A DNA stretch of 57,268 nt, filler included, from Stramenopiles sp. TOSAG23-6 (lineage: Eukaryota), in NCBI GenBank assembly GCA_900128565.1. It is 4 parts of 4 records of this genome, joined end to end, with 100 filler letters (N's around TTAATTAATTAA, not from the genome) between each part and the next. Parts side by side here need not be neighbours in the genome. Positions count along the whole stretch, not along the records: positions 28,797 to 43,036 come from LT636145.1; 3 more parts are not named here. One strand, written 5' to 3'. The notes beneath the pieces were generated by a model. It did not search any database. It saw only the letters and a list, made by a program, of their open reading frames with translations, and was not told the origin of the DNA. Shown here in pieces: positions 30,498 to 51,132 of this stretch (its first letter is position 1; each line of letters opens with the position of its first letter). The position numbers and the translations under genes are program-made.

Positions 30498-33400
30498 TTA
30501 TTTTAAGATTTCATCTAAATTAGTTTCGATACTTGCAGTGTCTGTTGTGTCAACTTCCACAACTTTATCAGCATAAAGTTTACAAATTCCAGCAATTTCC
30601 CTTTGAAATATATCATCTGATTGTCTGACTACCTTTTCACCAGCCCGCTCATTGCGAACGTTCACAGATGCAGTCAGTTTAATAACATGCTCAACAACAC
30701 CAATATTTTCTTCAAGATAAAAAGCTTGATCATGATGCATTGGAAAACCTGCAGAAATTGTTCGAGGATATCCCGATATGAGAAACTTCTTCCCACTTCC
30801 AGCACTTCGCATTTGAACATGAGCTACTCTTGCAACCACGTCATTTGGTACTGTGCGCTTGAGACGTATACATTTTGCAATAACCTTACCATCTTCAGAT
30901 CCCATTGATGCTTCGTTATCAAGAAGTAAAGGAATATTGAGATGAACATATCCATATCGTCTCCCTAAATGTATTACTACATCATCCGAAGCAGTACCTG
31001 CTGGGGATAAGAGAAGTGAAACGTTCGGTAAGAAGATTTTTTCGCATTGGCTGAATGTTTCATCAATACTTCCATTCGCATCAACCATTCGTAACATGTT
31101 TCTTCTTTTTAGTTCGGGAATTACTGGTTTAGTCAAAAGATTCCATGTATTAAATCGTTGTGCGATTGCTACTGATGATAATCCCAAACGTTCCGCAGCG
31201 ATATTTTCTTCGACATTAAAGTAAAGGCAAGAAGAATGTGACGATAATCCAATTGTTTCTTGAAAACGTTGGATTTGTTCTCGAGAACGGGGATATCCAT
31301 CAATAAGAAATCTCCGTTTACCAGATGCTTTCATTGCGTTGTGTAACATTCGAAGTAAAATAAAAGATGGAATAATTTTTCGTTTCGCCATCATACTTTG
31401 TACCATTTTCCCTGAAGGAGTTCCCCTCTCACATTCCGCCTTGAGCAGCGTTTGTAAACACAATCTTTGATAACCAAATGTAGATGCTAGTTTGTTGCAT
31501 ATAGTTGTTTTTCCTGCCCCAGGTGGACCTATCGCAAATACAATCTCATTGATAAACATTGAATGTGACCGTTGGTAAACGATTTCATTACCTAATGCAG
31601 AATCAGCATAAGTTACGAGTCCTCGCTTTGAGAAGTAATTGATGACAGGTAAACATTGCTTATCAAAGAGCATTCTTTTTCTAGCTTCGCTACTGTTTTT
31701 CTTGACTGAACCATCAGCATCCTTTTTTATGTACAAAACACCCGTTACATCAGCCACTCTTTGCTCAAATGCTTTTGCTTGATCAAGTGCACGTGGAAAT
31801 CCATCAATAACATAACCCCTTGCTCGACCACCACATGCGCTCATGGCTTTGCGAATAATAGACAGTGTTAGTGAAATTGGTACAATTTGCCCCCCGCGAA
31901 TGATTTGATCAAGTTGCTTGCCCTCAGCTGATCCACGAGCTACCTCTGAGCGAAGTAAATCGTCCACGCTAAGATGTACTAAGTTGAACTCCGTTGCAAC
32001 GCGATCACATAATGTTGTTTTTCCAGATGAAGAAGCACCTAAAACAAAATAAACTTTTGGTTCCAATGCTAGCTGCACATCTTGCCATACCTTATCGCTT
32101 GGATGGTTTGCATCGACAACTCTTTCAAGGCCAGATCTCGAGTAGAATTCTGCCATTGGCTTGATGGATGCAGTATATGTCGCAAAACTCTCTTCAATGG
32201 ATTTTGCATCACGACCAAGTTGAGCAAGACGTGTTTTACATACCTTGACCGTAGTAGAAAGATGAAGTACACATTGAGGAGAGCCAATACACTTCTCAAA
32301 CATAGCAGCGTCTGATCGAGAGTTTGGCCAACCACTTATTAAAAATTTATCATTGGTACTCTTCTCCATTGCAGCTTGAAGGACTTCAACGACAACAGGT
32401 GCTTCTACTTCTCTACCTGCATTAGCTCTGGCTGAAATTAGTTGACCAACTTTTGATCCAGTATTTTCTTGAGCAGCCAAAAGTTCAGGCACAGAAATGT
32501 TTTGAAAACCATATTTTTCTGAAATTTTTCTACAATGAACAGACTTGTCACAACCCTCTGGACCAATGACAAACACTGTCCGTGGCATAAATGCAGTATG
32601 TGCCTGAGTCCAAACCTGTTCTGCGCTTTCACTTGCAGATATGTTCCATACTATACCAAGTTTGCGATAAAAATCAATCAAAGGTTTTGAAAATTTATGA
32701 AACAAATCTATTCGCTTTTGGTAGACTTCCTCGTTATCATCACTGCGTTTTTCAGTCTTTGCACGATTTCTTAATCGCCGTTTCATGATGTGGTCTGAAG
32801 TATCCAAATTAAGGACAAAGCGACATGGAGCAACTTCACGCTCAAAGAGATATGCTTGGTCAATTTGTCGAGGGTAGCCATCAATTAGAAATTTTTTCGA
32901 TGGATTTGACATGATTGCATCCTTTAGTAGTCGGAGTACGTGTTTAGTTGGTACAAGTTCACCCTTGCTAATATGCGCATTTATCGTTTTACCAAGTGGT
33001 GTCTCTCTTTTCTGTTCTCTTCGAAGTAAATCTCCTGTGCTTATATGAGCATATCCAAATTCTTTACTGATACGTGCACACACCGTTCCCTTACCACTAC
33101 CTGGACCACCGAGGACAAATACAATTTGTTTTTCATTTGGTTTTGAAACAACTCCAGCTGGAAGAACTGTATCGACTAAAGTAGCTTCAGGAAGTTCATC
33201 TGAATCTTCAACTACATAATAATCTGCAAAACCTTCGTCAACAACAGGATTGCTTGGATTATTATTACGTAACCAATAGCCAAGCCATCGTATGGCATCT
33301 GAACCGATAGGTTTTTCTTTGCATAGTTCAGTGAGTCCATATATTGTGAAAAATATGTTACATTTGAGATTCGTTAGGTACAACATTTCATAAGGAAAAA

Positions 33401-34271
33401 AAAAATATTTGAAATGCATTATGAAAACGCACTTCAACAAGTGTAGAGTGAAGTGTTCGTTTTGATGATGGGCCAGCACATGCAGATGACAAATAACCAC
33501 GAGCTTCATTGACTGTTTGTTCGCCTTGTTTGTTTAACTGTGGGAAGAAAAATGAAATTTCTCTATTTGCACTCTTTGTCGAATCTGACCCATGAACAGC
33601 ATTTCGTTGCCCATTTAAACCAAATTGAGCTCGAATTGAATCAGGAGCATCAACACGAGCGGTATTTGAGTTTGTGGGCCCACATAATAAACGCCAATGA
33701 CTGATAGCACCAGGTTTGGCAAGCACCATTGCATGAAGAGGACCAGATGACATGTATTTTGGAAAAATATTTCAAAATGTTTTCTGTTAGGTACAAAATT
33801 TCGTATGAAAAATAAATTCGATTTTTTTGTTAAAAAAAAAAATAAAACATACATGAAGTCTGTAAGACCATTAAAGAAAGACCTTTTTGAATGTTCCGCA
33901 TAAAACATTTCAGCACGAGATTTTGTTAATGTAACATTTAATTTCTGCACTATCGTAAATCCAGCATTCTCCACCATTGCGACAATTTTTGCTGCATTAT
34001 TATTAGCAAAAGCATCCGGTTTGATCAGCGCAAGAGTTTTTTCCACTTCCAATCCATCAGGAAACCAAAATTTAAGTTCCCGATCAGCGTCGTTGCCAGT
34101 GGCAGATCCATGTGCTGCATTAGATTGCTTATTTTCTCCATATTGGGCTCTAATTGTATCAGGTGCAATTTTGCGTGCCTCGTCACTATCAGTTGGGCCA
34201 ATAAACTGGCGCCACGCATCCACAGCATTTTCTTTTTCTAATGCTAAAATTACAGTTTTCCCCGAAGACAT
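30498..34271 (-). CDS. NDP kinase domains + Dpy-30 motif + five adenylate/UMP-CMP kinase-like domains, 5' part missing; exons 34271-33853, 33751-33433, 33338-30498
   Basis: NAAHGSA and NAVHGSD NDPK motifs, EKTLALIKPDA, Dpy-30 TLVE|GLTELCKEKP...WLGYWL. P-loops GGPGSGKGT, GASSSGKTT, GPPGAGKTT plus two degenerate ones. Confidence 0.9.
33339..33432 (-). other. Repeated-family intron, GT...AT (94 nt)
   Basis: AA|GTGCGT...GTACCTAAC...CACAATATAT|GGA. Removal restores the Dpy-30 motif. The next AG is out of frame. Confidence 0.85.
33752..33852 (-). other. Repeated-family intron, GT...AT (101 nt)
   Basis: AT|GTATGT...GTACCTAAC...AAAATACAT|G. Removal restores the NDPK motif LTDFMSSGP. Confidence 0.9.
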
Positions 34272-34364
34272 ATGTATTTTAGAAAAATATTTCAAAAAAA
34301 ATTCGTTAGGTACAAAATTTCGTAAGAAAAAAAATTCAAATTTGAACAAAAAAAAACAACATAC
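34272..34364 (-). other. Repeated-family intron, GT...AT (93 nt), joining two unrelated coding regions
   Basis: AT|GTATGT...GTACCTAAC...AAAATACAT|ATG. The upstream exon is phase 2 and the downstream exon is phase 0. Confidence 0.75.
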
Positions 34365-35788
34365 ATGGGTATATTAATCATGAGGGACAATCGTTCACCA
34401 GAAAATTGCATCTCTTGAAAAGTATCATCATATTTTTGTATTGAAATACGATCCATATCCATAAATAATGAAAGTGCCTCTCCATGTGATACGAGCCATT
34501 CAACAGCACCATTTCTATCATTTTTATAGACAGATAAAACTTGAAGAACGATATGAATAGGATAGCCCATATTACTAATCATTTGAGCCGAAGGTATTGC
34601 TTCACAATCATTTGAATATTTTGCATCTGTCATCACTTCAGAAATGCATTCATTGTTTTTGTGTGTGTCATCAATATTACGAGGTTTCTTCAAAGGGCAT
34701 CGTTTGTCCGATGGTGCATGTATAGGAACTTGAAGAGAGTTCATGATACGCAGCATATGTACCGCCATGTTTGATATCGGCGTCGGTAGTAATATACCCT
34801 GGACAACATTTTCCGAACTATTATTGGGTAATCCAAAAGTAAGAAGCGTTAAAACTAATTCCAGCATAATCGTAGCTGACCCAAGAGCTACAGCTGACGC
34901 TTGTAATGTTAATAACAGACAAATTCTTTTTTGTTTTATTTTTTCATCATTGAAACTAAGAATACCCTGTTGCAGTGATGCAAGGATCTTACTCATTTCT
35001 TCACACATTTGATGCCTTTTTGGATGATACAGGAGAGCGCATGGTGCAACATCAGTAAGTGATAAGAGGTTGTCCTCGATATCTGTAGAATTTTCATTGG
35101 GGTTTTGTAGTAAAAGGTATAAATTTTCAAGATTATTTTTTAACCACTCAATATATAAAGGAATGCTTCGTTTAGGGTCAGCATCACCACTCTGTGCACC
35201 AGCAGAATCTTTGGAAATATGATATTGTGAAACTGATACTAAAGCTGCAAGTGCATTGGAACCTACACAACCAAGAAGCTGCGGTGTTTTTTTATAACAA
35301 ATTGGGGGTGAATGTTTTTTTTTCCTTCTAATATTCTCAAGCTCGTCAAGAGCAGCCCAAACACTCAACAGCAATAACTTGCGACGCATGAAAGCCGTGG
35401 TTAATATCGGTATAACTGATTCCTCCCCTAAACCATATGGAGAGACTAATATAGCTAACTCAGCACAGGCGGCCGAAATGACGCAAGAACTTCGACACTC
35501 CACTCCAGCAGCTATAGCACGATATTGTAATGACCTTGCTCTTGCAATTTGCGAACTCATTTTTGCTACGCATATACTAAGCGATCTAGAGAATAAAGAT
35601 GAACTTTTTGCTATTTTGAGTAGTTCTTCGCCAATAACATCGGCTACAAAAATATCATCAATAATTGCATCAGTGAGTATTCGAAACAGCTCTGTCTTTT
35701 TATGCTCAACTAGAGCAAGTAATCGTAAAGCAACACGATGAATTAGCTTCTGCATACTATGATCTATATTATCCTCCCCATAACTCAT
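34365..35788 (-). CDS. First exon of a large protein with a UBA-like motif (possibly a giant E3 ligase N-terminus)
   Basis: Helical region LLLTLQASAVALGSATIMLELV, and UBA-like MISNMGYP...ND.NGAVEWL. Ends at an intron donor. Confidence 0.6.
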
Positions 35789-36053
35789 CTTATTCGCATA
35801 ACAACGTTCTGCAAATCATAAAATTAAACTATAAGATGATTTGTGTGTAGCCTCTTTTTTTTCGAATGACTAGCGAAGCTTGCTTAGCCCTTACAGTTTC
35901 ACTTTTTGGAAAAATCAGTTTTTTTCGTGTCACGGCTTCGCAGAGCGGAACCTTGTCGTTGTGTTTCAAAGTTCAAACTTGTGTTACACTTTTGCTAATA
36001 CTGGAATAGTTACCAGCTGTCTATTTACTCATACACTCGTATAATTGAGAATA

Positions 36054-36614
36054 ATGCCTGTGATATGTATAGGACCACTTTGTGTACCTATTTGGGGCCT
36101 TCTTCCAGTTATAGCCCTTTTTTTTCAGCGAATATGGAATTGGTTTATGGGTAAAAATTCGTTGATTAATAAGCCTGTAGATAGGGAGAAGGGTCGTGGC
36201 GGTGTCATTGAGGTCAGAACCAAGATAAACTGGATGGCGGCGCGCAAAAGCGCAGTTGTCCACGATAGACCAATGATAGTCCAGTGGAGTACACCTACGT
36301 GTGGACCATGTAAGAAGATATACCCATTATTTGAGTCTTTAAGTCATCTATATAAAGATCTTATCTTCGTGAAAGTTGGAGACTCACAAAGCGTTGAGCT
36401 GTCAGGCATAGCGAAAAGTTGCGCAGTCGCAGCTTTCCCAACATTTCAAATGTATCACGGTGAAGAAAACAGTCCATGTTTAGAATCATTCATCGGAGGT
36501 TATGAAACACAATTGCGAGAGTTAGTTCAAAAATATTCAATTTGCAATCCCTCCAATATAGCAACTTCGAAGTTTGATCTTGCTCCTTCCAACTGTAAAG
36601 GTGGGCAATGATAA
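36054..36614 (+). CDS. Membrane-anchored thioredoxin (CGPC), candidate selenoprotein ending CKGGQ-U
   Basis: Hydrophobic N-terminus, WSTPTCGPCK and AFPTF motifs. TGA 36609-36611 is followed directly by TAA 36612-36614. Confidence 0.85.
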
Positions 36615-36676
36615 TTCATTTCCTACCATAATGTTATGCAAATACCATATTGGTAGAATCTAGTGATTTACGATAC

Positions 36677-36735
36677 TGTAGCCATTGACAGCTTTGTTCA
36701 AAATCTTATGCTGAAGAATAGAGCCTGAGGTTGCA
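36677..36735 (+). promoter_or_regulatory. SECIS-like element in 3' UTR
   Basis: Helix I TGTAGC/GTTGCA, core TGAC (36686) / TGAG (36726), helix II GCTTTGTTC/GAATAGAGC, unpaired AAAA at 36700. The base before TGA is T rather than the usual A. Confidence 0.65.
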
Positions 36736-36846
36736 TGTTTCGAAGTCAATTTAATAAAAAAATAAATACTGAAAAGTATAAGAAATTGAAATTTTTAATA
36801 TGCAAGTACCTTAAAGTATTTGTACACGCTTGATATTTGCGATCTA

Positions 36847-39203
36847 TTATGCATTGCTTCCTTCCCTTACGAAAGCAAACTTACTAAATCGCATGCTAGG
36901 TGCATTCCCAAGATTTCGTGATGACTCTGTTTTAATAGTGAATTGGATTTTTCTATGTTTCATTTCCAATATTGGAGTTTCAGGAATAAAACTGATTTCG
37001 CTTTCTTCTGAGCATTGGGATTGTTCAATAGTTTCTTCTGTAGTAGATTGAAGCATTACTTCACTCTTTATATTATTACAACTAGAATTTGTATTTATCA
37101 ATCTTCGTTTTTGTTTGGGTTGCGAAGATTCAGATTCGTCTTCAACTGTCGAAGAGCATCGTTTCGTTGGCTTTTTTTTATCTTGAAGTTCCTCAACAGC
37201 AAAAGTATTAGTACTATTTTTATGACACAATGAAGATTTCTCAAAACTACTATTATGATATATGTTGCATAGGTTTGGATCGTTCTGTTCATTTTTAGTT
37301 ATCTTTTGATCACATATGAATCTATTTTGTGATGTCATTCTTTGAAGAACGAGTTCATTTACTGGTGCCGTAGCAGCAGAACTTCGAGATTCTTGTCGAA
37401 TCATAGCAAATGACTTATTCATATGATCACTATGAGGTACCTGAGTGTTGCTTTTACTTTGACGAAATTTATCTAGACGATTTTTGATAGATTTTGTTGN
37501 ATGATTTTTTTTTTGGCTTTTTATTTCTCGTTCACTTTTATCATCGTTTTTATTCGTCTGTTGACGGAAATCGAATCGCGAAAATTGTGACAAATTATTA
37601 GTATACTTTTGTTTGCGGCTTCTTTTACTGGCACCACTATTAGAATTGAACCTTTTTAATGAAGGTATAGAAGATTTTATAGATGTACTAGATTTTCCAT
37701 TTGAAGAGTTCCAGAATCGACTAACTCCCAGACTCTTCCTACTATTTGAAGAATTTGACGTATTTTCAGAATATTTATCATTTTCATGTACATCGGAATT
37801 AATTGAAGTTTCTCTCGGTGCTTTAAAGGGAAATGCAACTTTAGCAGAGTCTGGAACTTTCGGGTGATGTGAAGCATATTTTGTGTTACGATGGCCTAAC
37901 CCTATCATTTGATTTTTACTTTTGTTTACAGTTGAAGGATTTTTACTTTTATTTACATTTGAAGGATAATTTCTATTATCTGTTCGCGTGAAGAAGTTAT
38001 CTATGGTAGCATTCTGACTTATTTTTGACCCAACTTGTTTAGCATCTTTACGAGAATTTGTAGTTGTAGGAATATTTATAGTCTCATAAGGTTTTTTAGT
38101 GATGGGATCAATTTCTCCTATTGCAATTGCGTGGACAATATCATCATCAATAAGCGGACCAAGAAAGTCAATGGCTTGAGGTGGCAATCTTTCCATTTCT
38201 TCTGGAAGTGGATGCAACGGAATGATAGATTTCTTGCATGGACTATATACTCTATGATGAAGAAACGTAAGTCTCGCGCGTTTGAACATCTTATCATGTA
38301 TTGTGTGAAATAATTTAGAAATGTGGAATTAGTGAAAAAAAATGTTAGGGACTAAAAAAAAAGATAAATTTAAAATTCACCATTAAAAAGTACATAATCT
38401 AATGGAATATGTTTTAACCTCCCATTTAATCGTAGTTTTGATAGCAATTGTTTTGTGTTTCGAGCCCCGGAAGTCGCTCGATGGGCAGTAATAATTCCCA
38501 TTCCTTTCAAATTTGGGAGGTAGTCACATCCGGCGAGAATGCACATGTTGAGTAATTTATCTGACGTCCAATTTAGTAGAGATATTTTTTCACAACTTCC
38601 CAAGTTGTTGCGATCATATTCCTGGCCACACAATGTATCTGGATTTAATTTAAACAAAACTTTCTTACAACCATACGGGATACAGTCTGAGTCTTCAGAG
38701 ATTACAAAATCGACAAGATCATTCATAGACATATATGCCATTTGGGCGTCTGCTTCATAAGGTGCGACTATATATTGCAAATTACGCTTCTTCATCTCCT
38801 GTATAACTTCATACGCCATTTGAGGACTGACATCAACGGACATTGCAAAGCATTGATTCGCTGCACTATATTCACCTTTTCGGGCGAATTCTTCAGCCTT
38901 TCGTTTGTTCTCGGCACGCGATTCAGCGCGTTTTTCTTCGGTACCAGATTTACTTGGCAATGGCCCCCCATCAAATATCATGATAGGCTTTACACCATAA
39001 CGTATCAAATCATCTAGGCGTTTCATGATGTATTGAATATGTTTCCTTGTCGGCCGACCGTGGGCAAGGTCACTCGCACAGCAGTACACTGACCTATGCA
39101 GCCACGCGTATCCGTCAATTGCACAAGTTTGACCAGCATATGAAGACAAGTGTACATCATCTAACACATCCTTGATTGCTGAAAGTAAGCCCCCGATACC
39201 CAT
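36847..39203 (-). CDS. EXO1: Exonuclease 1 (XPG/RAD2 family); exons 39203-38394 and 38295-36847
   Basis: MGIGGLL, AIDGYAWLHR, IFDGGPLPSK, VAPYEADAQMAY, SEDSD, CILAGCDYL, and spliced PLDY|DKMFKRARLTF. Confidence 0.95.
38296..38393 (-). other. Intron, GT...AT (98 nt), diverged family member
   Basis: AT|GTACTT...CCCTAAC...CACTAAT...CACAATACAT|GAT. The AT acceptor keeps EXO1 Y-x-x-x-F spacing. An in-frame AAG 6 nt downstream would delete two residues. Confidence 0.75.
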
Positions 39204-39504
39204 GCTACAAATAGAACACCAGTACTATTCGTTTACACTCTTTCTTTTCGTTGTTATTGTACTAAGAATAAGAATATACTATTTTTAGGACTCCTAATTG
39301 ATGGATTTCAGATTCCAAAAATCGGCCGCGGCCAAAAATTATTGAAAAATAATACGTTCAAAAAATCAAGTGAAAATTCTAAAATCGAAAAAAATTCTAT
39401 AATCAATCAATATAGCATATGCATTATCTATTTATTATTATTACCAATCAATCTAAAATCATAATTTTCACTCTTAGAAATGATTCTAATGAAACGTTAC
39501 TAAT

Positions 39505-40050
39505 TTATTTGACCCATGGAGGGTGATGTGAGTCACTACCAAAACCATTAATCTGTCCACTAAAATTATTCGCTAAAGCATCTTCAAGCATCCTTACTTG
39601 TTTTTCATATTCTTGAAGCCGAGTTCGAAGTAACTTCATTTCTTGGAAACCTTCTTGCTGGCGTCGCACAAGTACTTTTGCACTATCAGTCAATGTAGCA
39701 ACATGATGCTTGAGTTCAATGTTACGTGCTATCATATCATTTATTTGTTTATCTTTTTGTTCTACTATATCAGTCATTTGACGCTCTAGTACGTCTCTTG
39801 CAGCAGTGTAACTCTCACTTAACTGTACATTCTGCGCAGAAAGTTCATCTAACTGTGCTCTACTTTGACGCAAAGCTTGGTCCCTTTCCCGTATAACAGT
39901 CTCCAAGTGTTCTATACGGGACAATCCTGCTGAATGAGACATTTTCCCACGGTGGCAATTTCTTCTACCAGTATTTGAAGAGCGGGTTGGCGTCCCACTG
40001 TTGGTAGGATCAAAACCCATTCCTGCAAGTCTGTTTGACAGCTGCTCCAT
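39505..40050 (-). CDS. Small coiled-coil protein
   Basis: 181-aa ATG ORF with a coiled-coil core. Confidence 0.65.
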   Translation of the reverse strand: MEQLSNRLAGMGFDPTNSGTPTRSSNTGRRNCHRGKMSHSAGLSRIEHLETVIRERDQALRQSRAQLDELSAQNVQLSESYTAARDVLERQMTDIVEQKDKQINDMIARNIELKHHVATLTDSAKVLVRRQQEGFQEMKLLRTRLQEYEKQVRMLEDALANNFSGQINGFGSDSHHPPWVK

Positions 40051-40361
40051 TATTTAACTATCACTTGAAGGATATACTACTCAGATGAATGAAGAACAAC
40101 TTTCAGTTCACAGTTGAGGTACTTGGCCAGTCAAGTTTGTATGCAGTGACTGTAGTCGTTGCCAGTCAAGTTTTTGTGCATGCCAATCAGTTACAAAAAA
40201 AAGTCCTCAGACTTTTTGGGTTAGGGTTGGGGTTTCTTTAAAGTGTCAGTTTAAATGCATCTTGTCAATTGTAGTAGCAAATACGGTACCGTTAATTCTG
40301 TGTATTTCAACAGTTCTACGATACGCCCCGGTATCTTGCATATCATTCAGTGAAAACACAT

Positions 40362-40436
40362 TGAATGCTCGGATAAACTTGATATCCCTTGGAGCATAGC
40401 ATTTAAGGGAAGGTTATAAATTTATCCGAGCATTCA
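40362..40436. repeat. 16-bp perfect inverted repeat with inner 6-bp stem
   Basis: TGAATGCTCGGATAAA (40362) / TTTATCCGAGCATTCA (40421); inner TCCCTT/AAGGGA. Confidence 0.8.
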
Positions 40437-41022
40437 CAAGCTACAAATATTTTTTTGTTGAAGATGGATGAAGCACTAGTGGATGGCGTGCTTTCAAGCT
40501 GGACCAAGACAAAAGTATCCGATACTGTCAGACTTTTTCAGAGTGAGAAATGTGGGATTCCATGTAGTACTTTATCGAAACATTTTAGTTATTCGTCCGT
40601 ATGAAAGAACCAAAGTCAAATAAAATATAGTGAAATTGATGTTCACTCAGATAATGAACGAGAAATATGGGGCTACTTTACATTTGGGGAACGCTACAAT
40701 CTATGAGTGAACTTTTTGGAGGTCTTGGTAATTCAAACACACAAGATATATGAAAATGTATTCAATTGAAACGAAATTTTACTGATAATAAAGTTGCTTA
40801 TCAGTCAGAGTATTGTTGATTATATTGATCATATTGAAAAAAACATAAAAAAAAATCGAACGCCTTTTTTGTACCAAATTTTATACGTAACAAATTTCAA
40901 AATTTTTGTTCTGATTTGTTCAATTTGTTCATTTTTTTTTTTCGCTTGCTAATATTGTGATTTGTTTTGTGATTTGAAAGGTTTCGTGACAAAATCAACT
41001 CATAAAATACGAAATAATTGAA

Positions 41023-41102
41023 NNNNNNNNNNNNNNNNNNNNNNNNNNNNNNNNNNNNNNNNNNNNNNNNNNNNNNNNNNNNNNNNNNNNNNNNNNNNNN
41101 NN
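41023..41102. other. Assembly gap (80 N)
   Basis: Plain N run without linker. Confidence 0.95.
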
Positions 41103-42410
41103 TTTGAGTCAAATTTGGGTTCTTGTGGTTCTGCTGGTTGGCATTGTATTACCTCTTCGACTGGGGTATGATCCCACCGTTGTCGAAGTGATGGCATGTC
41201 GGGACAACTTATTAAATTTTTCATATTATCTGAAAGAGAATTTTGATAATATTCATTTGACACACATAGACAAGTTCTTTTTAATTCATCTTTGTGAACA
41301 AATTCTTCAGAGAACATTGTTTCATCAATGCGAAATGAAGTTTCTTGTCTTATGGAATGTAAAAAATATTTTTTTTTGTACAATTTGTTAGGTACAAAAT
41401 TTAGTATGAAAAAAAAACATTTCAACTAAAAAAAAAAAAACCTACATGCTAAACCCTGGATGCTCTTCTATGGCACAGTCAATTATTGGCAGTGGTGATT
41501 CACTATTGTCAATGAAACCATTCTCTCGTGCTTTATTAAGCTCTGATGTTATATTCTCCATGAGATGTATAAGCGAAACTTCATTCAATTTATCTGTCAA
41601 CATGTTTCCAGCTGCTCTAAATTTAGGGTATATTGTGATTGTTTTTCCAAGTAAATTGTTATTTCTCCAATAATAATTTTTTTTAATGGGTTTGTTATTT
41701 TTTGTTGACCAACCCGGGAAATCTCGGTAATTGGAGCGAGACAAGTCTTGATTATCATTGTCAGTATTTATAATCTTGAAACAAAACTCCATATCCATAA
41801 GTTTATCCATGACAACTCTCAGTGCATTAGCCATAACTTCAGGCGTTCCAATGGGTGGAGAATAATGCAATTTCATTGGTTGCCAATATCTTCTTCTATT
41901 TTTAATTACCTCCGATTGTGTAGGATTAAACAAATCAAAACTTGAGGAGGTAAAACCCCATTTTGCGTTATCCTGCCATTCTTCGATAACTTTTGCATAC
42001 TCTACTGCATAAGCATAATCTGAGGAATCATCAGATTGATCATTTTCATAAAAAGGAATATTATCTTGGCAAAATGTTTTCAATTGACCTCGTGAATAAA
42101 AATGTGTCGTTAACGGCGCTAAACCAGATAGCAAAATTTTCGCTTTATTGAGACTCTCCTTTATCTTCTCTATTCCCTTTATCGAATGATCAGCATTTTG
42201 TTTTTGTTGTGCGTTGCTGTCCAAAAGTCCCAAAGTTTTACTGGAGGTAATCATTATTTCATCATTTAGTTTTTGAAGTTCAAATAGTTTCGAAAGAAAC
42301 GACGAAAGGTCGTTTATTTTTATGCCTTGTATGCCTTCCTTGGCGTGTACAACAAACTCTGTGTTATACAGTATAACCAGGAAAATAAAGAATACATAGG
42401 TTGTTTTCAT
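41103..42410 (-). CDS. Secreted phosphothreonine lyase-like protein (OspF/SpvC or LanL/LanKC lyase fold); exons 42410-41446 and 41351-41103, 3' end in gap
   Basis: Signal peptide, then ordered motifs MKLHYS, FCFKII, GKTITIYP, ELNKARENG...PIIDC and spliced FSI|RQE. Confidence 0.6.
41352..41445 (-). other. Repeated-family intron, GT...AT (94 nt)
   Basis: AT|GTAGGT...AAATTTTGTACCTAAC...TACATTCCAT|A, phase 2. An in-frame AAG 3 nt downstream would delete the motif Arg. Confidence 0.7.
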
Positions 42411-42737
42411 TGTGAAATACGTTGCTTGTTTTGTCTGTTTTTCTGTGTAATAGTATACTTCTACAAGTTTTATAACTCAGTGAATAAAGTAAGGAAGATA
42501 TGCATTGCGAGAAAAAAACAGTCGAACGCGACGGTTATAATGAAAACGACAATTTTATAACCGCTCTCCACGAAATCACTGCTATCCAGAACAGGTTTGT
42601 CCCAGCAAATCCCATTCACTACAATCGAGTCAGTTATACTCACAAATATGCCGAAATATGCACAAATTGCAAGAAGATGTTTGCACCACGTTTATCTCGA
42701 GATTGACTGAATCAGTTATTATAAGACTTAACGCCAG

Positions 42738-43036
42738 ATGCGTTTGCAAACACTTGAAGTTCAATTGTATTTATTGACATTAATTTCTTTTGCTTTGTTT
42801 GTAACAAATGCACAAGCGGCAGTAATATCCGCGGAACCGTTGATTCGAGAACTAACGGCTCCAGAAATATCAGAAATATATGCGAAGCGGCACAATATTC
42901 CCAACGCTCTGCCTCTTAAGTATCACAAATACTTTCGCAACTTTCGTCTCCTTCAAAAATTGGATCATGGACTCGGGCTAGTCTATGTAGCAGATGATTT
43001 TACAACTGATACAAAAGTTGTCCTTAAATTTGTAAA
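42738..43036 (+). CDS. Signal peptide followed by protein-kinase N-lobe-like sequence, truncated by contig end
   Basis: Hydrophobic LYLLTLISFALFVTNAQA, then FRLLQKLDHGLGLVYVADDFTTDTKVVLK resembling subdomains I-II. Confidence 0.5.
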
Positions 43037-43136
43037 NNNNNNNNNNNNNNNNNNNNNNNNNNNNNNNNNNNNNNNNNNNNTTAATTAATTAANNNNNNNN
43101 NNNNNNNNNNNNNNNNNNNNNNNNNNNNNNNNNNNN
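43037..43136. other. Artificial contig linker
   Basis: 44 N + TTAATTAATTAA + 44 N. Confidence 0.95.
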
Positions 43137-46100
43137 TCATTCAAAGTCAAATTTTGTATATTTGTTAAATTACCAATTTCAGTTGGAATTGTACCAGTAA
43201 GCTGATTCGTTTCTGAAAGCAAATCTGTCATTTTACTTAATTTACCAATTTCAGTTGGAATTGAATCGCTTAGTTGATTTGTACGCAAAGCCAAAGCTTG
43301 AAGTTTTGTTAGTTGACCAATTTCTGTTGGAATTGCACCAGATAGTTGGTTGCCATTCAAGTACAAAATTTGAAGTTTTCTTAGTTGACCAATTTCAGAT
43401 GGTATTGTACCAGATAGGTTGTTGTTGTACAAGTCCAATTCTACTGTAAGGTTTGTTAGTTGACCAATTTCTGTTGGTATTGTACCAGATAGTTGGTTAT
43501 TGCTCAAGCTCAAATCTCCGAGATTTGTTAGTTGAACAATTTCTGTTGGTATTGTACCAGATAGTGTGTTGTTGTTTCTCAAGGACAATGCTGTGAGAAA
43601 GGTTAGTTGACCAATTTCTGTTGGAATTGAACCAGATAAATTGTTTTGTAACAAGCTCAAGACTGAGAGATTTGTTAGTTGACCAATTTCTTTTGGAATT
43701 GGACCAGATAGATCGTTTTCATTCAAAGTCAAATTTTGTATATTTGTTAAATTACCAATTTCAGTTGGAATTGAACCAGATAGTTTGTTGCTGTACAACC
43801 ACAATGTTTGGAGATTTGATAGTTGACCAATTTCTTTTGGTATTGGACCAGATAGTTTGTTATCATTCAAAGTCAAATTTTGTATATTTGTTAAATTACC
43901 AATTTCAGTTGGAATTGTACCAGTAAGCTGATTCGTTTCTGAAAGCAAATCTGTCATTTTACTTAATTTACCAATTTCAGTTGGAATTGAATCGCTTAGT
44001 TGATTTGTACGCAAAGCCAAAGCTTGAAGTTTTGTTAGTTGACCAATTTCTGTTGGAATTGCACCAGATAGTTGGTTGCCATTCAAGTACAAAATTTGAA
44101 GTTTTCTTAGTTGACCAATTTCAGATGGTATTGTACCAGATAGGTTGTTGTTGTACAAGTCCAATTCTACTGTAAGGTTTGTTAGTTGACCAATTTCTGT
44201 TGGTATTGTACCAGATAGTTGGTTATTGCTCAAGCTCAAATCTCCGAGATTTGTTAGTTGAACAATTTCTGTTGGTATTGTACCAGATAGTGTGTTGTTG
44301 TTTCTCAAGGACAATGCTGTGAGAAAGGTTAGTTGACCAATTTCTGTTGGAATTGAACCAGATAAATTGTTTTGTAACAAGCTCAAGACTGAGAGATTTG
44401 TTAGTTGACCAATTTCTTTTGGAATTGGACCAGATAGATCGTTTTCATTCAAAGTCAAATTTTGTATATTTGTTAAATTACCAATTTCACTTGGAATTGG
44501 ACCAGATAGTTTGTTGTTGTTCAACCACAATATTTCAAGATTTATTAGTTGACCAATTTCTTTTGGAATTGGACCAGATAGATCGTTTTCATTCAAGGCC
44601 AATTCTTTGAGATTTGTTAGTTGACGAATTTCATTTGGAATTGGACCAGATAGATCGTTGTCAAACAACCACAAATATTCGAGATTTCTTAGTTGACCAA
44701 TTTCCGCTGGAATTGATCCAGATAGTTCGTTGTTTTTCAATTCCAACCTTTCAAGCTTTGTTAGTTGACAAATTTCCGTTGGTATTGTACCAGTTAGATT
44801 GTTGTCTAGCAAGATCAAATATACAAGACTTACTAGTTGACCAATTTCTTTTGGAATTGAACCAGATAGTTGGTTAGTTGACAAGTCCAACAATTGGAGA
44901 TTTGTTAGTTGACCAAATGCCATTGGAATTGGACCAGATAGTTTGTTCCCTGTTAACTCCAACTCTTTAAGATTTGTTAGTCGACCAATTTCCTTTGGAA
45001 TTGAACCAGATAGTTCGTTGCTGTCCAAGTGCAATAATTCGAGATTTTTTAATTGACCAATTTCTTTTGGTATTGGACCAGAAAGGTTGGTGCTTGACAA
45101 GTCCAAACCTTCAACAAGATTTGTTAGCTGACCAATTTGCGTTGGTATTGTACCAGATAGTGTGTTGTTCTTTCTCAAGGACAATGCTGTGAGAAAGGTT
45201 AGTTGACCAATTTCTGTTGGTATTGTACCAGATAGTTGGTTAGTGCTCAAGCTCAAATCTTTGAGATTTGTTAGTTGAACAATTTCTGTTGGTATTGTAC
45301 CAGATAGTTTGTTATGATCCAAATGCAACAATTGGAGCTTTGTTAGTTGACCAATTTGTGCTGGTATTGTACCAGATAGTTGGTTAGTGCTCAAGCCCAA
45401 TTCTCCGAGATTTGTTAGTTGAACAATTTCTGTTGGAATTGTACCAGATAGGTTGTTGTTGTACAAGTCCAATTCTAATGTAAGGTTTGTTAGTTGACCA
45501 ATTTCTGTTGGTATTGTACCAGATAGTTGGTTAGTGATCAAGCTCAAATCTCCGAGATTTGTTAGTTGACCAATTTCTGTTGGAATTGAACCAGATAGAC
45601 TGTTTTTGTACAAGTGCAAATATTTAAGATTTGATAGTTGACCGATTTCCGTTGGAATTGAACCAGTTAGTAGTTTGTTTTCGTTCAACAACAATTTTTC
45701 GAGCTTTGTTAGTTGACCAATTTCCGTTGGAATCGAACCAGATAGTTTGTTATCATTCAAAGTCAAATTTTGTATATTTGTTAAATTACCAATTTCAGTT
45801 GGAATTGTACCAGTAAGCTGATTCGTTTCTGAAAGCAAATCTGTCATTTTACTTAATTTACCAATTTCAGTTGGAATTGAATCGCTTAGTTGATTTGTAC
45901 GCAAAGCCAAAGCTTGAAGTTTTGTTAGTTGACCAATTTCTGTTGGAATTGCACCAGATAGTTGGTTGCCATTCAAGTACAAAATTTGAAGTTTTCTTAG
46001 TTGACCAATTTCAGATGGTATTGAGCCAGATAAGTTGTTCACTGACAAGTCTGATTGTAGGAGAATTGTTAGTTGACCAATTTCTTTTGGAATCGAACCA

Positions 46101-46866
46101 GTTAGTTGGTTGTTGCTGAAGTACAAAGTTCCGAGATTTGTTAGTTTACCAATTTCTATTGGTATTGTACCAGTTAGATTGTTGTTGTACAACCACAATT
46201 GTATGAGATTTGATAGTTGACCAATTTCTGTTGGTATTGTACCAGATAGTTGGTTAGTGCTCAAGCTCAAATCTTTGAGATTTGTTAGTTGAACAATTTC
46301 TGTTGGTATTGTACCAGATAGTGTGTTGTTGTTTCTCAAGGACAATTTTTTGAGATTTGATAATCGACCAATTTCACTTGGTATTGGACCAGATAGGTTG
46401 TTATAACTCAAGTACAAAGTTCCGAGATTTGTTAGTTTACCAATTTCTGTTGGAATTGAACCAGTCAGCTTGTTATTAAAATACAATTCCCTGTAAAGTA
46501 ATAAATATATGTCATGAAAATAACTTTTTAGAGTCTAGATATACATAATTATTGAAATGTAATGAAGTAAGACAATACTACGTACAAATCGGTAAGTTTA
46601 GTTAAATTACCAATTTCAGTTGGAATTGTACCACTTAGATGGTCGTTTGATGCACTAGATAATAAATGGAGTGTTGTAAGATTTGTTAAGCCACCAATTT
46701 CAGTTGGAATTGTACCGGTACCACTTAGTGCATCTTGTACCAATTTCAATTCAGTAACAATGTCAGGATCGGATGAACCACATATTATCACAGCCCCACA
46801 TACATCATCCAAATCTTTACCAGTTAATGCCTTATATACAGTCTTTGCTGTTTCAATCTCACTCAT
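43137..46866 (-). CDS. Plant-type LRR protein with >45 repeats, 3' truncated; exons 46866-46586 and 46490-43137
   Basis: Continuous 24-25 aa LxxLxLxxNxLSGxIPxEIG repeats. Confidence 0.9.
46491..46585 (-). other. Canonical GT...AG intron (95 nt), not of the repeated family
   Basis: TT|GTACGT...TTTACAG|G gives in-frame TDLELYFNNKLTG. No family core sequence. Confidence 0.8.
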
Positions 46867-47095: not shown

Positions 47096-48988
47096 TTAAC
47101 AACTAATAAATCCTTTATTATTCTTTCCTTCGCAAAATTTTGATTTCAATATTTCATTTCCATTCTTATATATTATTTCAATATAATCTTCTGAATGCGA
47201 TTGTATGTCATTAAAATAGATAATGATGAGTATCAAAAAGGCAAACGGCAGCGCGATGCAACATGTTAAATCGATAAATCCAGCAAGGCGTCTTGCGGAA
47301 CTTTGTGTAAAATCATCAATATCCATATCTTTTTGTACCATTTGAGCAATTTCACAATATTTAGTATCACTGGATTTTTTCATGATATTCTCTTTCACAG
47401 AATCACCAGATAATGGTGCAACTTTGGCATTTTGATGCTTCGATCGCCGTTGAAGGACTTCAATACGTTCTACGTTTGGATCGCCTCGACAACATAATGG
47501 AAGTCTAAGGGCTAGATTGGCCCACATGTGCAGTAGTCTTGCAATCAAAATGTTGTGTGAATCTTGATATCTCCATCGTGTATTTGCTTGATTAATAATT
47601 AATGCCCACTCTGAAAATGTAATCATATCAATAGGTTTATTTGTGTTTTCATCAAAAATACCATTCGACTTTCCTTCACTAATATTATTCACCTTTTTAT
47701 TTCTACCATCAGCTTCTTTTAAAATTGAAAGTGTGGTCATATCAATATCATCATTTGTGTTTTTATCAAAATTCATCTTTTTATTTTCCGTCTGCTTTTT
47801 CATTTTACCTTCCAATACTCGATGAACAATCTTTAAAATTGAATTTGCGCTGATGTCGTCTATTCCCAATTTACTCATACCATTGACAATTTCTGTTTTA
47901 TCAAGAAACCCATCTTTGTTGACGTCAAGCTCTGAGAAAAGCGTCAAGAGTTGCGATGTGCTTTTGTATCCTGAAGGGGTCTTTACATTATATAAAGATA
48001 CTACAACTATAGATGCTGCAACCGTGGCGAGCATCATAAACATACACGTCATATATAGTTTCGACATGACCGTCCATTCACCAACCTTTGGGATTTCATC
48101 GTGGGCTACAAAATATATTGCTACTACTGTTAGAAGGGTGGTAATACCAAGACCAATCCGTTCGCCACTATCAGGGTTTAAGAGAAAACCCAAGAAACCC
48201 ACAATTGTACAAAGAGCCATTGGTGCAATAATAGAGTATACATAAGAGAGAGACTCACGCTTCACTACTAAAGTATACTCAATTACGGCATATGGCTCGG
48301 GGCAACATGAATAAATTGTCTCTACGTATTCAGTTTCTATTCTAATAAGCCTCATTTCAGTATGTTGCTTAAAGCTGTCAACCGTAACTGCTGCTATTTT
48401 ATTTCCTGTTGACCTCGGTATTATATCAAAATCATTTTTATTCATTGCCCAAGACCCTAGAGTAAACTTGCAACTTTGGACATCAAATGGGAATTTTTTC
48501 AGATCTAGACTGCAACCCATTTTTATGGTTTTTGGCTGGCTGTAAAATATTTCTCCACTTTCATAAACTGTGATCTGGGGCTTAATTGCTTCGTTAACAT
48601 CAATTGATTCGTATACAACATCATCAGGAACCCATAATTCTTCTCGTGGCACAAGGAGAACTTTTTCGTTTTTATAACCAGCTGTATTTTTATCCCACTT
48701 CAATCTGGCATCTTGCCAATAATGCCGCCACCACCCATTGACAGTAATTGTCTGGCTCGCTGTATCAAAATTGACAATACTCTGAAGAGAAAGCTGTATT
48801 CGAAGCTTCTGCTGGCCGTCTAGGTCTGTGGGCGTTCCTGTTTTTTTCTTGTCATAGCTATTAAAAAGAGTATCTCGCAAAGTTGTTGCAACCACCATAG
48901 TTTTTCCAACCTCCCGAAATGGAGTGATAACATTCAAGCATATGACACAAAAATATATTGAACTAGTTTTAAAGGCATACATTTTCAT
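47096..48988 (-). CDS. Pentameric Cys-loop ligand-gated ion channel, nicotinic alpha-like, with intracellular EF-hand
   Basis: WQDARLKW, LWVPD, Cys-loop CSLDLKKFPFDVQSC, LGSW, loop C YSCCPEPY, DSGERIGLGITTLL, four TM helices, EF loop DVNKDGFLDKTE. Confidence 0.9.
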   Translation of the reverse strand: MKMYAFKTSSIYFCVICLNVITPFREVGKTMVVATTLRDTLFNSYDKKKTGTPTDLDGQQKLRIQLSLQSIVNFDTASQTITVNGWWRHYWQDARLKWDKNTAGYKNEKVLLVPREELWVPDDVVYESIDVNEAIKPQITVYESGEIFYSQPKTIKMGCSLDLKKFPFDVQSCKFTLGSWAMNKNDFDIIPRSTGNKIAAVTVDSFKQHTEMRLIRIETEYVETIYSCCPEPYAVIEYTLVVKRESLSYVYSIIAPMALCTIVGFLGFLLNPDSGERIGLGITTLLTVVAIYFVAHDEIPKVGEWTVMSKLYMTCMFMMLATVAASIVVVSLYNVKTPSGYKSTSQLLTLFSELDVNKDGFLDKTEIVNGMSKLGIDDISANSILKIVHRVLEGKMKKQTENKKMNFDKNTNDDIDMTTLSILKEADGRNKKVNNISEGKSNGIFDENTNKPIDMITFSEWALIINQANTRWRYQDSHNILIARLLHMWANLALRLPLCCRGDPNVERIEVLQRRSKHQNAKVAPLSGDSVKENIMKKSSDTKYCEIAQMVQKDMDIDDFTQSSARRLAGFIDLTCCIALPFAFLILIIIYFNDIQSHSEDYIEIIYKNGNEILKSKFCEGKNNKGFISC

Positions 48989-49797: not shown

Positions 49798-51132
49798 TCA
49801 CTCTCTGTCTTCTCGAACAAAAATGTCACGTCCATTCAGTTCAGTATCATTGAGCGTATTAATCGCATTTCGCGCGTCGGCTGCGTTTGTATATTCCACA
49901 ACTCCGCCGCCAGAGGATCTTCCATCTCTGTATTTAAGAACTTCTGCATGTTTAACATCACCAGCAGCTCTCATGTGATCTTTTAGATCTTGCCATTCAA
50001 CTGACCAATCCAAGTTACCGACAAAGACCGAACATCCTCTACCCCCACTTCTTCCCCCACCTCTTCTTGAATTTCTTTGATTTCCTCTTCGTAAATCCTG
50101 TTGGGAATTCGATGGCTTTAGGTGAGAGCCAACGAATCTGTTGGTATTACTCTTACCTTGGCTTCTTCTTGAGTTGTAATTGGAATTGGATTTGGAATTG
50201 GAATTAGAAATGAAATCATTTGTATTTGAAATTCCTTCCCGATTTTCGCGCACATGAATTGATCGATCATTCAACATTGTATTATCCAAGAGTTTTATCG
50301 CAGCAAGTGCATCGCCTCCATTGCTAAATTCCACAACACCACCGCCAGTAGACCTTCCATCCTCGTACATGAATACGTCTGCACGTACGACATCACCTGC
50401 AGCTCTCATGTGATCTTTTAAATCCTGCCAAGTGACGGACCAAGCCAAATTACCGACATATACAGATGTCCCGACAGTCGCGTTGCTCGAAACATACTTA
50501 TCGTTAAGGGGAACACCTCCAACTGTTCTTGAATTTTCTTCTCGATTTTCGCGGACAAGAATTGGTCGATCATTCAACATTGTATTATTCAACAATTTTA
50601 TCGCATCATATGCATCGCCTCCATTGCTATATTCCACAACACCACCGCCAGTAGACCTTCCATCCCTGAATTTGAATACATCTGCACGTACGACATCACC
50701 AGCAGCTCTCATGTGATCTTTTAAATCCTGCCATTCAACAGACCAATCCAAGTTACCGACGTATACTGAAAAACACGTATCCTGCACATCATTTTTGACA
50801 GATTTTCCTCCATATTCGTCAGCATATATTCTCGCATATACTACCTTTCCGTCAAAATCTTGGTTGGATAGCAACGGAATAGCTCGTTTTGCATCTTCCG
50901 CACTTTGAAACTCAACCACGCCGGCGCCACCAGAAGGAAGAATATCAGCACGCAACACTTCGCCTCCAATCATAGCAAAATCTTTCAAATCTTGCCACCG
51001 GCAGTTGTATGGGAGATTCCCAATATAAACACGCTGGTTCGTTCCAGCGTGAGAAGAACGCCTGTTTCCTCCGTTCATTTTTGAATATGGTGACCTCCTA
51101 GCTGAAGATGTTCTACGACGCTGAGCTGGCAT
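49798..51132 (-). CDS. Gbp2/Hrb1/hnRNP M-like RNA-binding protein with four RRMs
   Basis: Four copies of VY(I/V)GNL.W...WQDLKD...G.V..A.V...GGGVVE...VRE.RE. Confidence 0.9.
   Translation of the reverse strand: MPAQRRRTSSARRSPYSKMNGGNRRSSHAGTNQRVYIGNLPYNCRWQDLKDFAMIGGEVLRADILPSGGAGVVEFQSAEDAKRAIPLLSNQDFDGKVVYARIYADEYGGKSVKNDVQDTCFSVYVGNLDWSVEWQDLKDHMRAAGDVVRADVFKFRDGRSTGGGVVEYSNGGDAYDAIKLLNNTMLNDRPILVRENREENSRTVGGVPLNDKYVSSNATVGTSVYVGNLAWSVTWQDLKDHMRAAGDVVRADVFMYEDGRSTGGGVVEFSNGGDALAAIKLLDNTMLNDRSIHVRENREGISNTNDFISNSNSKSNSNYNSRRSQGKSNTNRFVGSHLKPSNSQQDLRRGNQRNSRRGGGRSGGRGCSVFVGNLDWSVEWQDLKDHMRAAGDVKHAEVLKYRDGRSSGGGVVEYTNAADARNAINTLNDTELNGRDIFVREDRE

Follow-up and report, generated by a model that had tools for sequence, protein, structure and literature searches.

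The 57,268-nucleotide window analyzed here, the whole stretch of DNA taken from the assembly of the protist Stramenopiles sp. TOSAG23-6 (GCA_900128565.1), carries on its minus strand a gene, hereafter the lyase-like gene, that probably encodes a secreted, catalytically competent and very divergent lyase of the OspF/SpvC - RamC_N superfamily. Judged from its sequence, the protein is very likely homologous to this superfamily of phospho-Ser/Thr lyases; its fold, activity, secretion and substrate we infer. Phosphothreonine and phosphoserine lyases modify proteins irreversibly, and are known both as bacterial type III effectors that disable host mitogen-activated protein kinases and from lanthipeptide biosynthesis. 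The chemistry and the catalytic set are already known, and what is new is the kingdom, the architecture (a signal peptide, a helical region and a stand-alone lyase core) and an introner-derived intron. If this reading is true, phospho-lyase chemistry extends to protists, the gene is a concrete candidate source of dehydroamino acids in eukaryotic proteins, and it suggests that effector-type enzymes of bacterial origin are in use among uncultured marine grazers or parasites.

Gene structure, transcription and splicing

The gene opens in a minus-strand stop-to-stop frame (41442..42476) whose first ATG stands at 42410, and an open frame of 344 codons at 33% guanine plus cytosine (G+C) has a chance probability of ~3e-12. 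The exon 1 frame ends in ATG-TAG, and the protein comprises at least 404 residues (322 codons from exon 1 and 82 from exon 2). A first-pass annotation had placed the gene at 41103..42410, which is right for the start codon at 42410 and wrong for the other end, as 41103 is not the 3' end of the gene: exon 2 runs into an 80-N gap.

41445..42410, minus strand: exon 1 of the lyase-like gene (P0001), 322 codons from the ATG at 42410; transcribed
41351..41444, minus strand: intron, an introner-like copy (core TTTGTACCTAAC), from the RNA joint 41445>41350
41103..41350, minus strand: exon 2, 82 codons, open into the N gap
41023-41102, no strand: 80-N gap, hiding the 3' end of the gene

Among the 15 public sequencing runs listed for the stretch, 13 hold part of it, eight of these 13 being polyA or rRNA-depleted seawater metatranscriptomes, and the best DNA run holds 87% of the sampled words of the stretch. 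Contigs from two RNA runs (X3 and X5, from two studies) and two DNA runs (X1 and X2) were compared with the gene, and both exons are covered by RNA contigs of X3 and X5. A contig from the polyA metatranscriptome X3 (depth 4.3) joins 41445 straight to 41350, with the 94 nt in between (41351-41444) missing, whereas in the DNA runs X1 and X2 the 5' part of the intron is contiguous with exon 1 and no 41445>41350 joint is found. A 685-nt contig of X1 extends ~437 nt past 41103. The intron proposed in the first-pass annotation is thus borne out.

The contig with the splice joint comes from a close relative, with three other letters and a 5-nt gap in exon 2, and translates as ...H-P-G-F-S-M / R-Q-E-T-S-F-R-I-D-E. 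Placed on the window, the ends of the skipped 94-nt piece read TA..TA and are non-canonical. Owing to a 4-nt direct repeat (CATG/CATA) that flanks the intron, four of the five equivalent 94-nt registers on the window sequence yield S-I-R-Q-E; the remaining one gives S-M-R-Q-E, the reading of the RNA contig. The spliced SIRQE predicted earlier therefore stands for most registers of the window sequence and not for the relative's transcript. A canonical GT..AG intron of 97 nt would likewise keep the frame and give S-I-Q-E-T-S-F-R-I-D-E, which differs from the RNA contig. Two further splicings were rejected, namely a 20-nt GT..AG mini-intron, which runs into a stop, and an AT..AC register as in sister introner elements, which yields a stop in this gene.

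Protein layout and motif map

Seen from its N-terminus, the protein consists of a signal-peptide-like start, a helical region and the lyase-like core, within which the motifs are laid out as follows.

42342..42410, minus strand: signal-peptide-like N-terminus, residues 1-23 (MKTT, 11 hydrophobic residues, then ..VHA followed by K), with likely cleavage after VHA
41964..42341, minus strand: N-terminal helical region, residues 24-149, of no known family (no Pfam match); predicted long helical hairpin
41445..41963, minus strand: lyase-like core in exon 1, residues 150-322, supported by hhalign, ESM Atlas features and invariant alignment columns
41859..41873, minus strand: K180-L-H182-Y-S184, residues 180-184, equivalent to SpvC K104/H106/S108 and ThurKC K65/H67
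41772..41780, minus strand: F211-K212-I213, with K212 the presumed general base, equivalent to SpvC K136 (W135-K136) and ThurKC K94
41664..41771, minus strand: 36-residue insertion rich in N, D and K (residues 214-249, the last being R249), separating the strand of the base from that of T-x-Y
41625..41648, minus strand: G255-K256-T-I-T259-I-Y261-P262, residues 255-262, seven of eight residues as in the RamC_N hallmark GKFITIYP
41478..41525, minus strand: E296-N-G ... P308-I-I-D311 (ENG, residues 296-298, at 41517-41525; PIID, residues 308-311, at 41478-41489), from the alignment with the family

The N-terminus peaks at 2.85 in an 11-residue Kyte-Doolittle mean, in keeping with the signal peptide of the first-pass annotation, and the protein probably enters the secretory pathway. 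The five motifs named there (KLHYS, FKI, GKTITIYP, ENG...P..D and spliced SIRQE) are all present in that order, and both order and spacing are as in OspF/SpvC proteins and in the lyase domain of LanKC/LanL (RamC_N). K180 and K212 lie 32 residues apart, exactly as in SpvC. K256 corresponds to ThurKC K117, the functional counterpart of SpvC R148, and G255, T259 and Y261 to SpvC G152, T156 and Y158; further on, E296-N-G matches SpvC E189-N-G, P308 and D311 match SpvC P198 and D201, and D311 matches ThurKC D152. Exon 2 begins R323-Q-E325-T-S327-F-R329, which together with S321 forms S-x-R-x-E followed by S-x-R. In this block S321, R323 and E325 are equivalent to SpvC S211, R213 and E215 (R323 also to ThurKC R163), the D-to-S and D-to-R spacings are 10 and 12 as in SpvC, and S327 and R329 answer to SpvC S218 and R220, one residue closer than in SpvC.

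By hand alignment, counterparts are present for all role residues of SpvC (K104, H106, K136, Y158, D201, R213, R220) and of ThurKC (K65, H67, K94, K117, D152, R163), while the SpvC R148 position has two candidates, K256 (equivalent to ThurKC K117) and R249. We inferred the ThurKC numbering from a Lysinibacillus member of the family, which aligns to the ThurKC chains and supplies the spacing, and set it against the mutagenesis account in PMC10604976. In the published accounts, K104 and Y158 of SpvC act on the carbonyl, K136 is the base and H106 the acid (PMC2843593); the phosphate is bound by K104, R148, R213 and R220, and D201 contributes to acid/base catalysis (PMC10604976). The latter account also describes an extra loop of ThurKC at the site equivalent to insertion 214-249. 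This insertion coincides with an indel-prone site of the OspF alignment, and strain variants cluster there.

Homology to the lyase families

For the OspF/SpvC side of the comparison, SpvC was taken from the Salmonella plasmid pSLT and 93 family members were collected, 27 of which were aligned; positions invariant in this alignment include K104, H106, K136, R148, G152, T156, Y158, P198, D201, S211, R213, E215, S218 and R220. For the RamC_N side, prokaryote genomes were scanned for the G-K-F-I-T-I-Y-P coding pattern, which gave at least 120 loci whose flanks form one family (...Q-G-W-K-I-H-V-S-A...F-K...N-S-K...R..S-G-K-F-I-T-I-Y-P...G-P-Y-I-L-S-D...R-Y-G-G-F). All eight open reading frames (ORFs) tested from these loci belong to PF25816, four of them also with a protein-kinase domain (synthetase type) and four without one in the ORF read, which agrees with the earlier assignment of GKFITIYP to lanthipeptide synthetases and marks it as a hallmark of their lyase domain.

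The motif pattern of the window protein lies beyond chance. With family-derived spacing, K.H.S / [FWY]K / G...T.Y / P..D / S.R.E was reproduced by none of 200,000 composition-matched shuffles, and the same (0/200,000) holds for the part within exon 1, which is independent of splicing and for which a rough analytic estimate is ~1e-9 per protein. The literature-defined catalytic residues alone, allowed generous spacing, occurred in 756 of 200,000 shuffles, or 1,247 of 200,000 for the canonical-splice variant.

Profile comparison points the same way. The single sequence aligned by hhalign to a 72-domain RamC_N-type profile over 78 columns (177-278; Prob 83%, P 9e-6), and to a combined RamC_N and OspF profile with P 2e-5. 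Because the loci of the RamC_N-type profile were chosen by the octapeptide, GKTITIYP was masked in the query, and residues 177-216 still fell on the K-x-H-x-S...F-K columns (P 0.005); none of 206 shuffles that kept the octapeptide reached the real score (41.9, against a shuffle mean of 32.0 and maximum of 40.8). In an unsupervised MAFFT alignment of 84 sequences, K180, G255, T259 and Y261 all occupy invariant columns, and the columns of H182 and S184 are at least 90% conserved. Language-model features from the ESM Atlas scored 0.80 for the whole protein, the ten best family-bearing matches all being VRP3/RamC_N, which form one clan, and 0.88 for residues 165-322, where 200 of 256 features are common with a VRP3 cluster; by the tool's own calibration such a match is a lead, not proof. 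In Pfam, fragments of 155 and 192 residues returned RamC_N (PF25816) as the sole row (E 0.09-0.16, octapeptide region). Counts of hmmalign columns, with most of the query left unaligned, gave 2 of 26 for the OspF set (22 of 300 shuffles as good) and an octapeptide-driven 8 of 20 for the RamC set (0 of 300 shuffles).

The core resembles RamC_N in its N-terminal half and OspF in its C-terminal half, and in our view the protein represents a very divergent third branch of the superfamily, sitting in neither Pfam family. By eye, P-I-I-D311 and F320-S-x-R323 can also be set against the RamC_N stretch G-P-Y-I-L-S-D...R-Y-G-G-F, with a D-to-R distance of 12, although the corresponding profile comparison gives P 0.79.

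Predicted structure

When supplied with an 84-row family alignment, AlphaFold 2 (AF2) modelled the core (176-300) at a predicted local distance difference test score (pLDDT) of 64-93, and helices 32-63 and 69-101 at 73-87. Foldseek of this model returned ThurKC, CuvL, PneKC and SalKC as top rows (for ThurKC, prob 0.96, E 0.68, 100 columns, root-mean-square deviation 2.3), and VIA-align superposed 123 residues on the ThurKC lyase domain with Z 9.0; both values are circular, because the family alignment imposes the fold, and we take the match as compatibility only. The N-terminal helical region found generic helical matches only. For the family-alignment model the fold comparison suggested in the first-pass annotation is thus circular, and for the single sequence AF2 failed (pLDDT 35).

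Comparison with known systems

The closest profile match (P ~1e-5) is the RamC_N lyase domain of the ThurKC type (PDB 8SAM/8SAP), with which the window protein shares W/M-K-[IL]-H-x-S, F-K, G-K-x-I-T-I-Y-P (7/8), a D followed by an R 11-12 residues later, and a loop insertion between the base strand and the octapeptide strand. In contrast to the class III/IV synthetases (LanKC/LanL), which unite lyase, Ser/Thr kinase and LanC-like cyclase in a single chain encoded beside a precursor peptide gene, no kinase or cyclase domain was found by Pfam in the 404 residues read, and unlike the ThurKC-type synthetases the window gene is eukaryotic, has an intron and encodes a signal-peptide-like start and a 125-residue helical N-terminal region. 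It also departs from RamC_N in its C-terminal half, which has no significant match to the profile, and in a Pfam score below the threshold.

With OspF/SpvC/HopAI1 (PF03536, VRP3) it shares a stand-alone architecture and export from the producer cell, predicted in our case, as well as the SpvC spacing of 32 from K-x-H-x-S to the catalytic K and that of the block E-N-G...P-x-x-D-(10)-S-x-R-x-E...S-x-R; by language-model features, the VRP3 cluster is its nearest neighbour (0.88). It differs from this family in its 36-residue insertion, in a predicted classical signal peptide where the effectors have an N-terminus for type III secretion, and in the lack of a Pfam match, an hhalign P of 0.17 and eight lost family-invariant residues.

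Stand-alone RamC_N ORFs, without a kinase in the ORF read, were met in metagenome-assembled genomes (MAGs) of a Holosporaceae (L010), a Paracaedibacteraceae (L026) and another alphaproteobacterium (L027), and in a nanohaloarchaeon (L079). The L027 protein resembles ours in a hydrophobic, signal-like N-terminal segment, whereas all four differ from it in lying above the Pfam threshold (60-89 bits) and have no pairwise similarity to it. These four proteins are uncharacterised and possibly exported lyases in their own right.

Eukaryotic carriers of this chemistry have been claimed before, in that BLES03/C11orf68-like proteins were proposed as phosphothreonine lyases on fold grounds (PMC4159009). 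As described there, they have fold similarity without the OspF/LanL sequence motifs, which sets them apart from the window protein. In the same 2014 survey, SpvC- and VenL-like lyases turned up in bacteria alone, BLAST, PSI-BLAST and HHpred giving no eukaryotic sequence homologue. Our own full-text searches of one paper library listed no report of a eukaryotic or protist OspF/LanL-type lyase.

Given the known bacterial distribution of the superfamily, a horizontal origin from bacteria is plausible, and no donor or tree can be named because no sequence relative exists. Alphaproteobacteria of the Holosporaceae/Paracaedibacteraceae type, which are associated with protists, would be donors within a protist's reach.

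By analogy with SpvC and ThurKC, K212 would abstract the alpha proton of a phospho-Ser/Thr residue and H182 would protonate the leaving phosphate, with the backbone carbonyl polarised by K180 and Y261, the phosphate held by K180, K256 (or R249), R323 and R329, and D311 assisting. Such an irreversible 'eliminylation' would leave dehydroalanine or dehydrobutyrine. Candidate substrates are proteins of the prey, the host or a competitor, and secreted peptides that a partner kinase has phosphorylated; the protein may act as an effector or as a peptide-modifying enzyme.

Evidence weighing against a lyase

Several observations weigh against the reading of the protein as a secreted, active lyase, the first group of which concerns family assignment. 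The earlier assignment to the lyase families is partly supported by the motif set and the RamC_N-type profile, but reaches no curated threshold: PF25816 scores 12.6 bits against a cut-off of 27, matching positions 87-110 of 191 with the 155-residue fragment, and PF03536 is not listed even at E 10. With the whole protein, Pfam gave no relevant match (the only rows being Cpf1 REC2, E 0.18, and ETRAMP, E 0.38), and an NCBIfam search gave nothing. The RamC_N-type profile was drawn from loci picked by the exact octapeptide, which inflates the unmasked score. The OspF profile alone (27 members) is not significant (hhalign P 0.17-0.19), though the expected alignment is drawn; our own glocal profile alignment to the OspF core reaches z 1.7 by another path, with 16 of 200 shuffles as good; and, taken by itself, the C-terminal block reaches P 0.16 with OspF, in the expected alignment, and P 0.79 with RamC_N. 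From the hand alignment with 27 sequences, ~15 of 26 OspF-invariant columns are kept and ~11 lost, the SpvC-family invariants G102, D103, P131, Q154, S200, W207, Y212 and N214 being among the losses, and R249 stands two residues off from the family Arg.

Sequence searches were likewise empty. Exon 1 gave 1658 candidates in a word-indexed search of 5.8 billion proteins, none at E <= 0.01, and phmmer against 1.84 billion representatives gave a single match, P0003 (3056 aa, E 2.3e-8), and no homologue of the lyase part. P0003 was rejected as a relative, being a long tandem-repeat protein of which five repeated stretches align to residues 77-126 of the N-terminal helical region, a summed repeat artefact. 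Pairwise comparison with 120 family ORFs showed no similarity (best E 0.06). Finally, AF2 fails on the single sequence and the ThurKC fold match is circular, the splice joint is known from one contig only (depth ~4, from a relative), the C-terminus is hidden by the N gap, and the strain differences described below also fit relaxed constraint.

Other searches with the protein returned nothing by BLASTP against SpvC, nothing relevant in the PDB, and 66 pattern matches in a metagenome scan, none of them a relative. On the phage side, tblastn against 50,697 phage records gave nothing below E 5, and the PHROGs matched, phrog_35064 (E 0.006) and phrog_11900 (E 0.05), both carry function-less annotations and are not tied to the family, as none of seven RamC_N/OspF proteins matches any PHROG at E 0.01. 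PF25816 was also sought in one plasmid record and 14 control genomes, with no match.

A divergent neighbour and the two-gene reading

Head-to-head with the lyase-like gene, with 327 bp between the start codons, lies a second ORF.

42738..43034, plus strand: neighbour ORF, 99 codons, with a signal-peptide-like start (..T-N-A-Q-A followed by A), truncated where the record ends (43036)

The 20 residues at its C-terminal end align to the columns from the glycine loop to the VAIK lysine in a kinase profile built from 66 LanKC/LanL ORFs (hhalign P 3.6e-4, Prob 37%), a score reached by none of 338 shuffles (real 27.1; mean 12.2, maximum 25.2). Because this signature is short and generic, we regard the match as a lead only.

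Class III/IV lanthipeptide synthetases perform kinase and phospho-lyase dehydration within one polypeptide. It is conceivable, if doubtful, that the lyase-like gene is one half of a two-gene Ser/Thr dehydration system, in which the neighbour would add phosphate to Ser/Thr of some secreted peptide or protein, for the lyase to eliminate. The head-to-head arrangement, the kinase-profile match and the resemblance of the N-terminal half of the core to synthetase-type (RamC_N) motifs all speak for it. Yet just 18-20 residues match, within an ORF cut short at 43036, and the motif is one that protein kinases share in general; the 99 residues matched nothing in Pfam or in PDB sequence searches, and none of the other records in the window begins with a continuation. 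Neither a precursor peptide nor a cyclase was seen, and gene adjacency alone is weak evidence. In its broadest and equally speculative form, this would mean that a heterotrophic marine stramenopile domesticated bacterial kinase and phospho-lyase chemistry as a secretory head-to-head pair (42738, plus strand; 42410, minus strand), which might make dehydroamino acids, be a split counterpart of LanKC/LanL, or act as an effector pair against prey or host phospho-signalling.

Strain variation and the possible loss of activity

Compared with the window coding sequence, the contigs show 23 single-base differences, 21 nonsynonymous and two synonymous; most lie at contig depth <5, and 12 were seen in both an RNA run and a DNA run, each from a separate study. 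In the relative, a cluster of +2/-1/-1 indels rewrites residues 216-220 and keeps the frame. The differences affect the N-terminal region, the helix that follows K-L-H-Y-S, the loop formed by the insertion, and the tail, and none falls on a motif residue. Under neutrality, with ~76% of sites nonsynonymous, a hand calculation gives p ~0.06 for the excess, which fits either diversifying selection, as in secreted effector-type proteins, or relaxed constraint, the two being inseparable with so few sites. Such fast change would explain why no homologue was found, though the collection searched includes a related stramenopile proteome.

The same observations could mean that the protein is homologous to the lyases and no longer an enzyme, being instead a fast-evolving secreted phosphopeptide-binding or otherwise repurposed protein, or the product of a gene drifting to loss. 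The 21:2 ratio, the lack of detected orthologues and the loss of several family-invariant non-catalytic residues would all be expected of it. We nevertheless consider this unlikely, since every assigned catalytic or phosphate-binding residue is kept and none varies among the variants seen, and since the long frame is intact, transcribed and spliced, even the relative's indels keeping it open.

It is very unlikely that the motif resemblance is coincidental and that the gene encodes a lineage-specific secreted orphan of unrelated fold. Standard tools do lack a significant family match, and GKTITIYP alone occurs in unrelated proteins as well: a metagenome scan for its coding pattern found 65 loci, mostly unrelated proteins, three RamC-like and none eukaryote-like. 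However, K.H.[SAT] stands within 110 residues upstream in just four of these 65 ORFs, three of which are the RamC-like ones, the colinear five-motif pattern is absent from all shuffles, the masked-motif alignment still locates the correct region, and language-model features independently name the same two families. We retain the secreted, divergent lyase as the preferred reading.

Host and residency of the gene

The window joins four sequence records by three artificial spacers (N44-TTAATTAATTAA-N44 at 14331-14430, 28697-28796 and 43037-43136), and the lyase-like gene sits in the third record (28797-43036), behind its internal 80-N gap. The spacers put a stop in all six frames, and ORFs running into a spacer are cut. 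Eukaryotic genes in the assembly include THO2, FEN1-type XPG domains, ankyrin, a multi-adenylate-kinase protein, RRM and zf-UBP. A four-RRM protein (49798-51198) has 89% identity to a EukProt coding sequence with a MAST-type-stramenopile-like label, its further named relatives being diatoms, brown algae and a haptophyte, and owing to these relatives and the seawater runs we take the host to be a marine stramenopile, consistent with the protist named at the outset. A bdelloid-rotifer-like animal host, suggested by gene density and a Cys-loop channel gene, was dropped on the same grounds.

The lyase-like gene belongs to this marine stramenopile genome and is not a contaminant: its intron is of the introner-like family common to other window genes, its G+C content is ordinary for the window, it is found in polyA RNA, and it has no bacterial or phage match. 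Bacterial or viral contamination mis-joined into the eukaryotic assembly has a practically negligible probability, for although the piece with the gene (41103-43036) is linked to the rest of its record only across the 80-N gap, and the window itself is four records joined by spacers, the intron is removed in polyA RNA and is the same element that interrupts other window genes on their coding strands, the G+C content resembles the rest of the window and no bacterial or phage sequence matches.

Introner-like elements

The window holds seven occurrences of the core TTTGTACCTAAC, where 0.05 would be expected, and all seven read in the coding direction of the surrounding frames.

1051-1064, plus strand: core TTTGTACCTAAC, sequence match
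6135-6148, plus strand: core TTTGTACCTAAC, sequence match
7283-7296, plus strand: core TTTGTACCTAAC, sequence match
28803-28816, plus strand: core TTTGTACCTAAC, sequence match
33784-33797, minus strand: core TTTGTACCTAAC, sequence match
34303-34316, minus strand: core TTTGTACCTAAC, sequence match
41385-41398, minus strand: core TTTGTACCTAAC, sequence match, within the lyase-gene intron

The copies are ~90-100 nt long and have common ends, CATG followed by TATGTTTT on one side and AAAATA followed by CATG on the other, with termini that are inverted-repeat-like and flanked by a 4-nt direct repeat. Given these seven copies with common ends, the intron of the lyase-like gene is a copy of an introner-like element, and what RNA removes is the element together with one copy of the direct repeat. 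Introner elements with inverted repeats, non-canonical ends and short direct repeats that span the exon/intron boundary have been described for the dinoflagellate Amoebophrya, and canonical ones for the stramenopile Aureococcus (PMC7789003).

The element is also met at the record end at 14320-14330, and two sequence records break inside introner-like copies. At 4385-8353 on the plus strand, a long frame of 586 codons and another of 735, the latter with ankyrin repeats, run in the same phase and are split only by a stop that falls inside an introner-like element at ~6087-6182; they are probably one gene with a 93-nt intron, whose register is readable as GT..AG or AT..AC.

Other features of the window

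No paralogue of the lyase-like gene was found within the window. A 1011-codon frame at 30498-33533 on the minus strand contains about five tandem adenylate-kinase domains (Pfam ADK, E 7e-133, five stretches). Plant-type 24-residue leucine-rich repeats (LRR_1 x23, LRR_8 x24) fill a frame of more than 1100 codons at 43139-46534 on the minus strand, which has long, near-identical internal duplications and a 3' end cut by the spacer. At 47096-48988, also on the minus strand, this stramenopile assembly has a Cys-loop ligand-gated ion-channel gene (Neur_chan_LBD, E 3e-41, and a membrane region). Because the leucine-rich-repeat and channel genes are on another record, they are not shown to be neighbours of the lyase-like gene. 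Lastly, a possible 29-nt GT..AG mini-intron (GTGAAT...TTTAG; 38352-38380, minus strand) lies between the FEN1-type XPG frame at 38370-39224 and a frame at 36847-38328.

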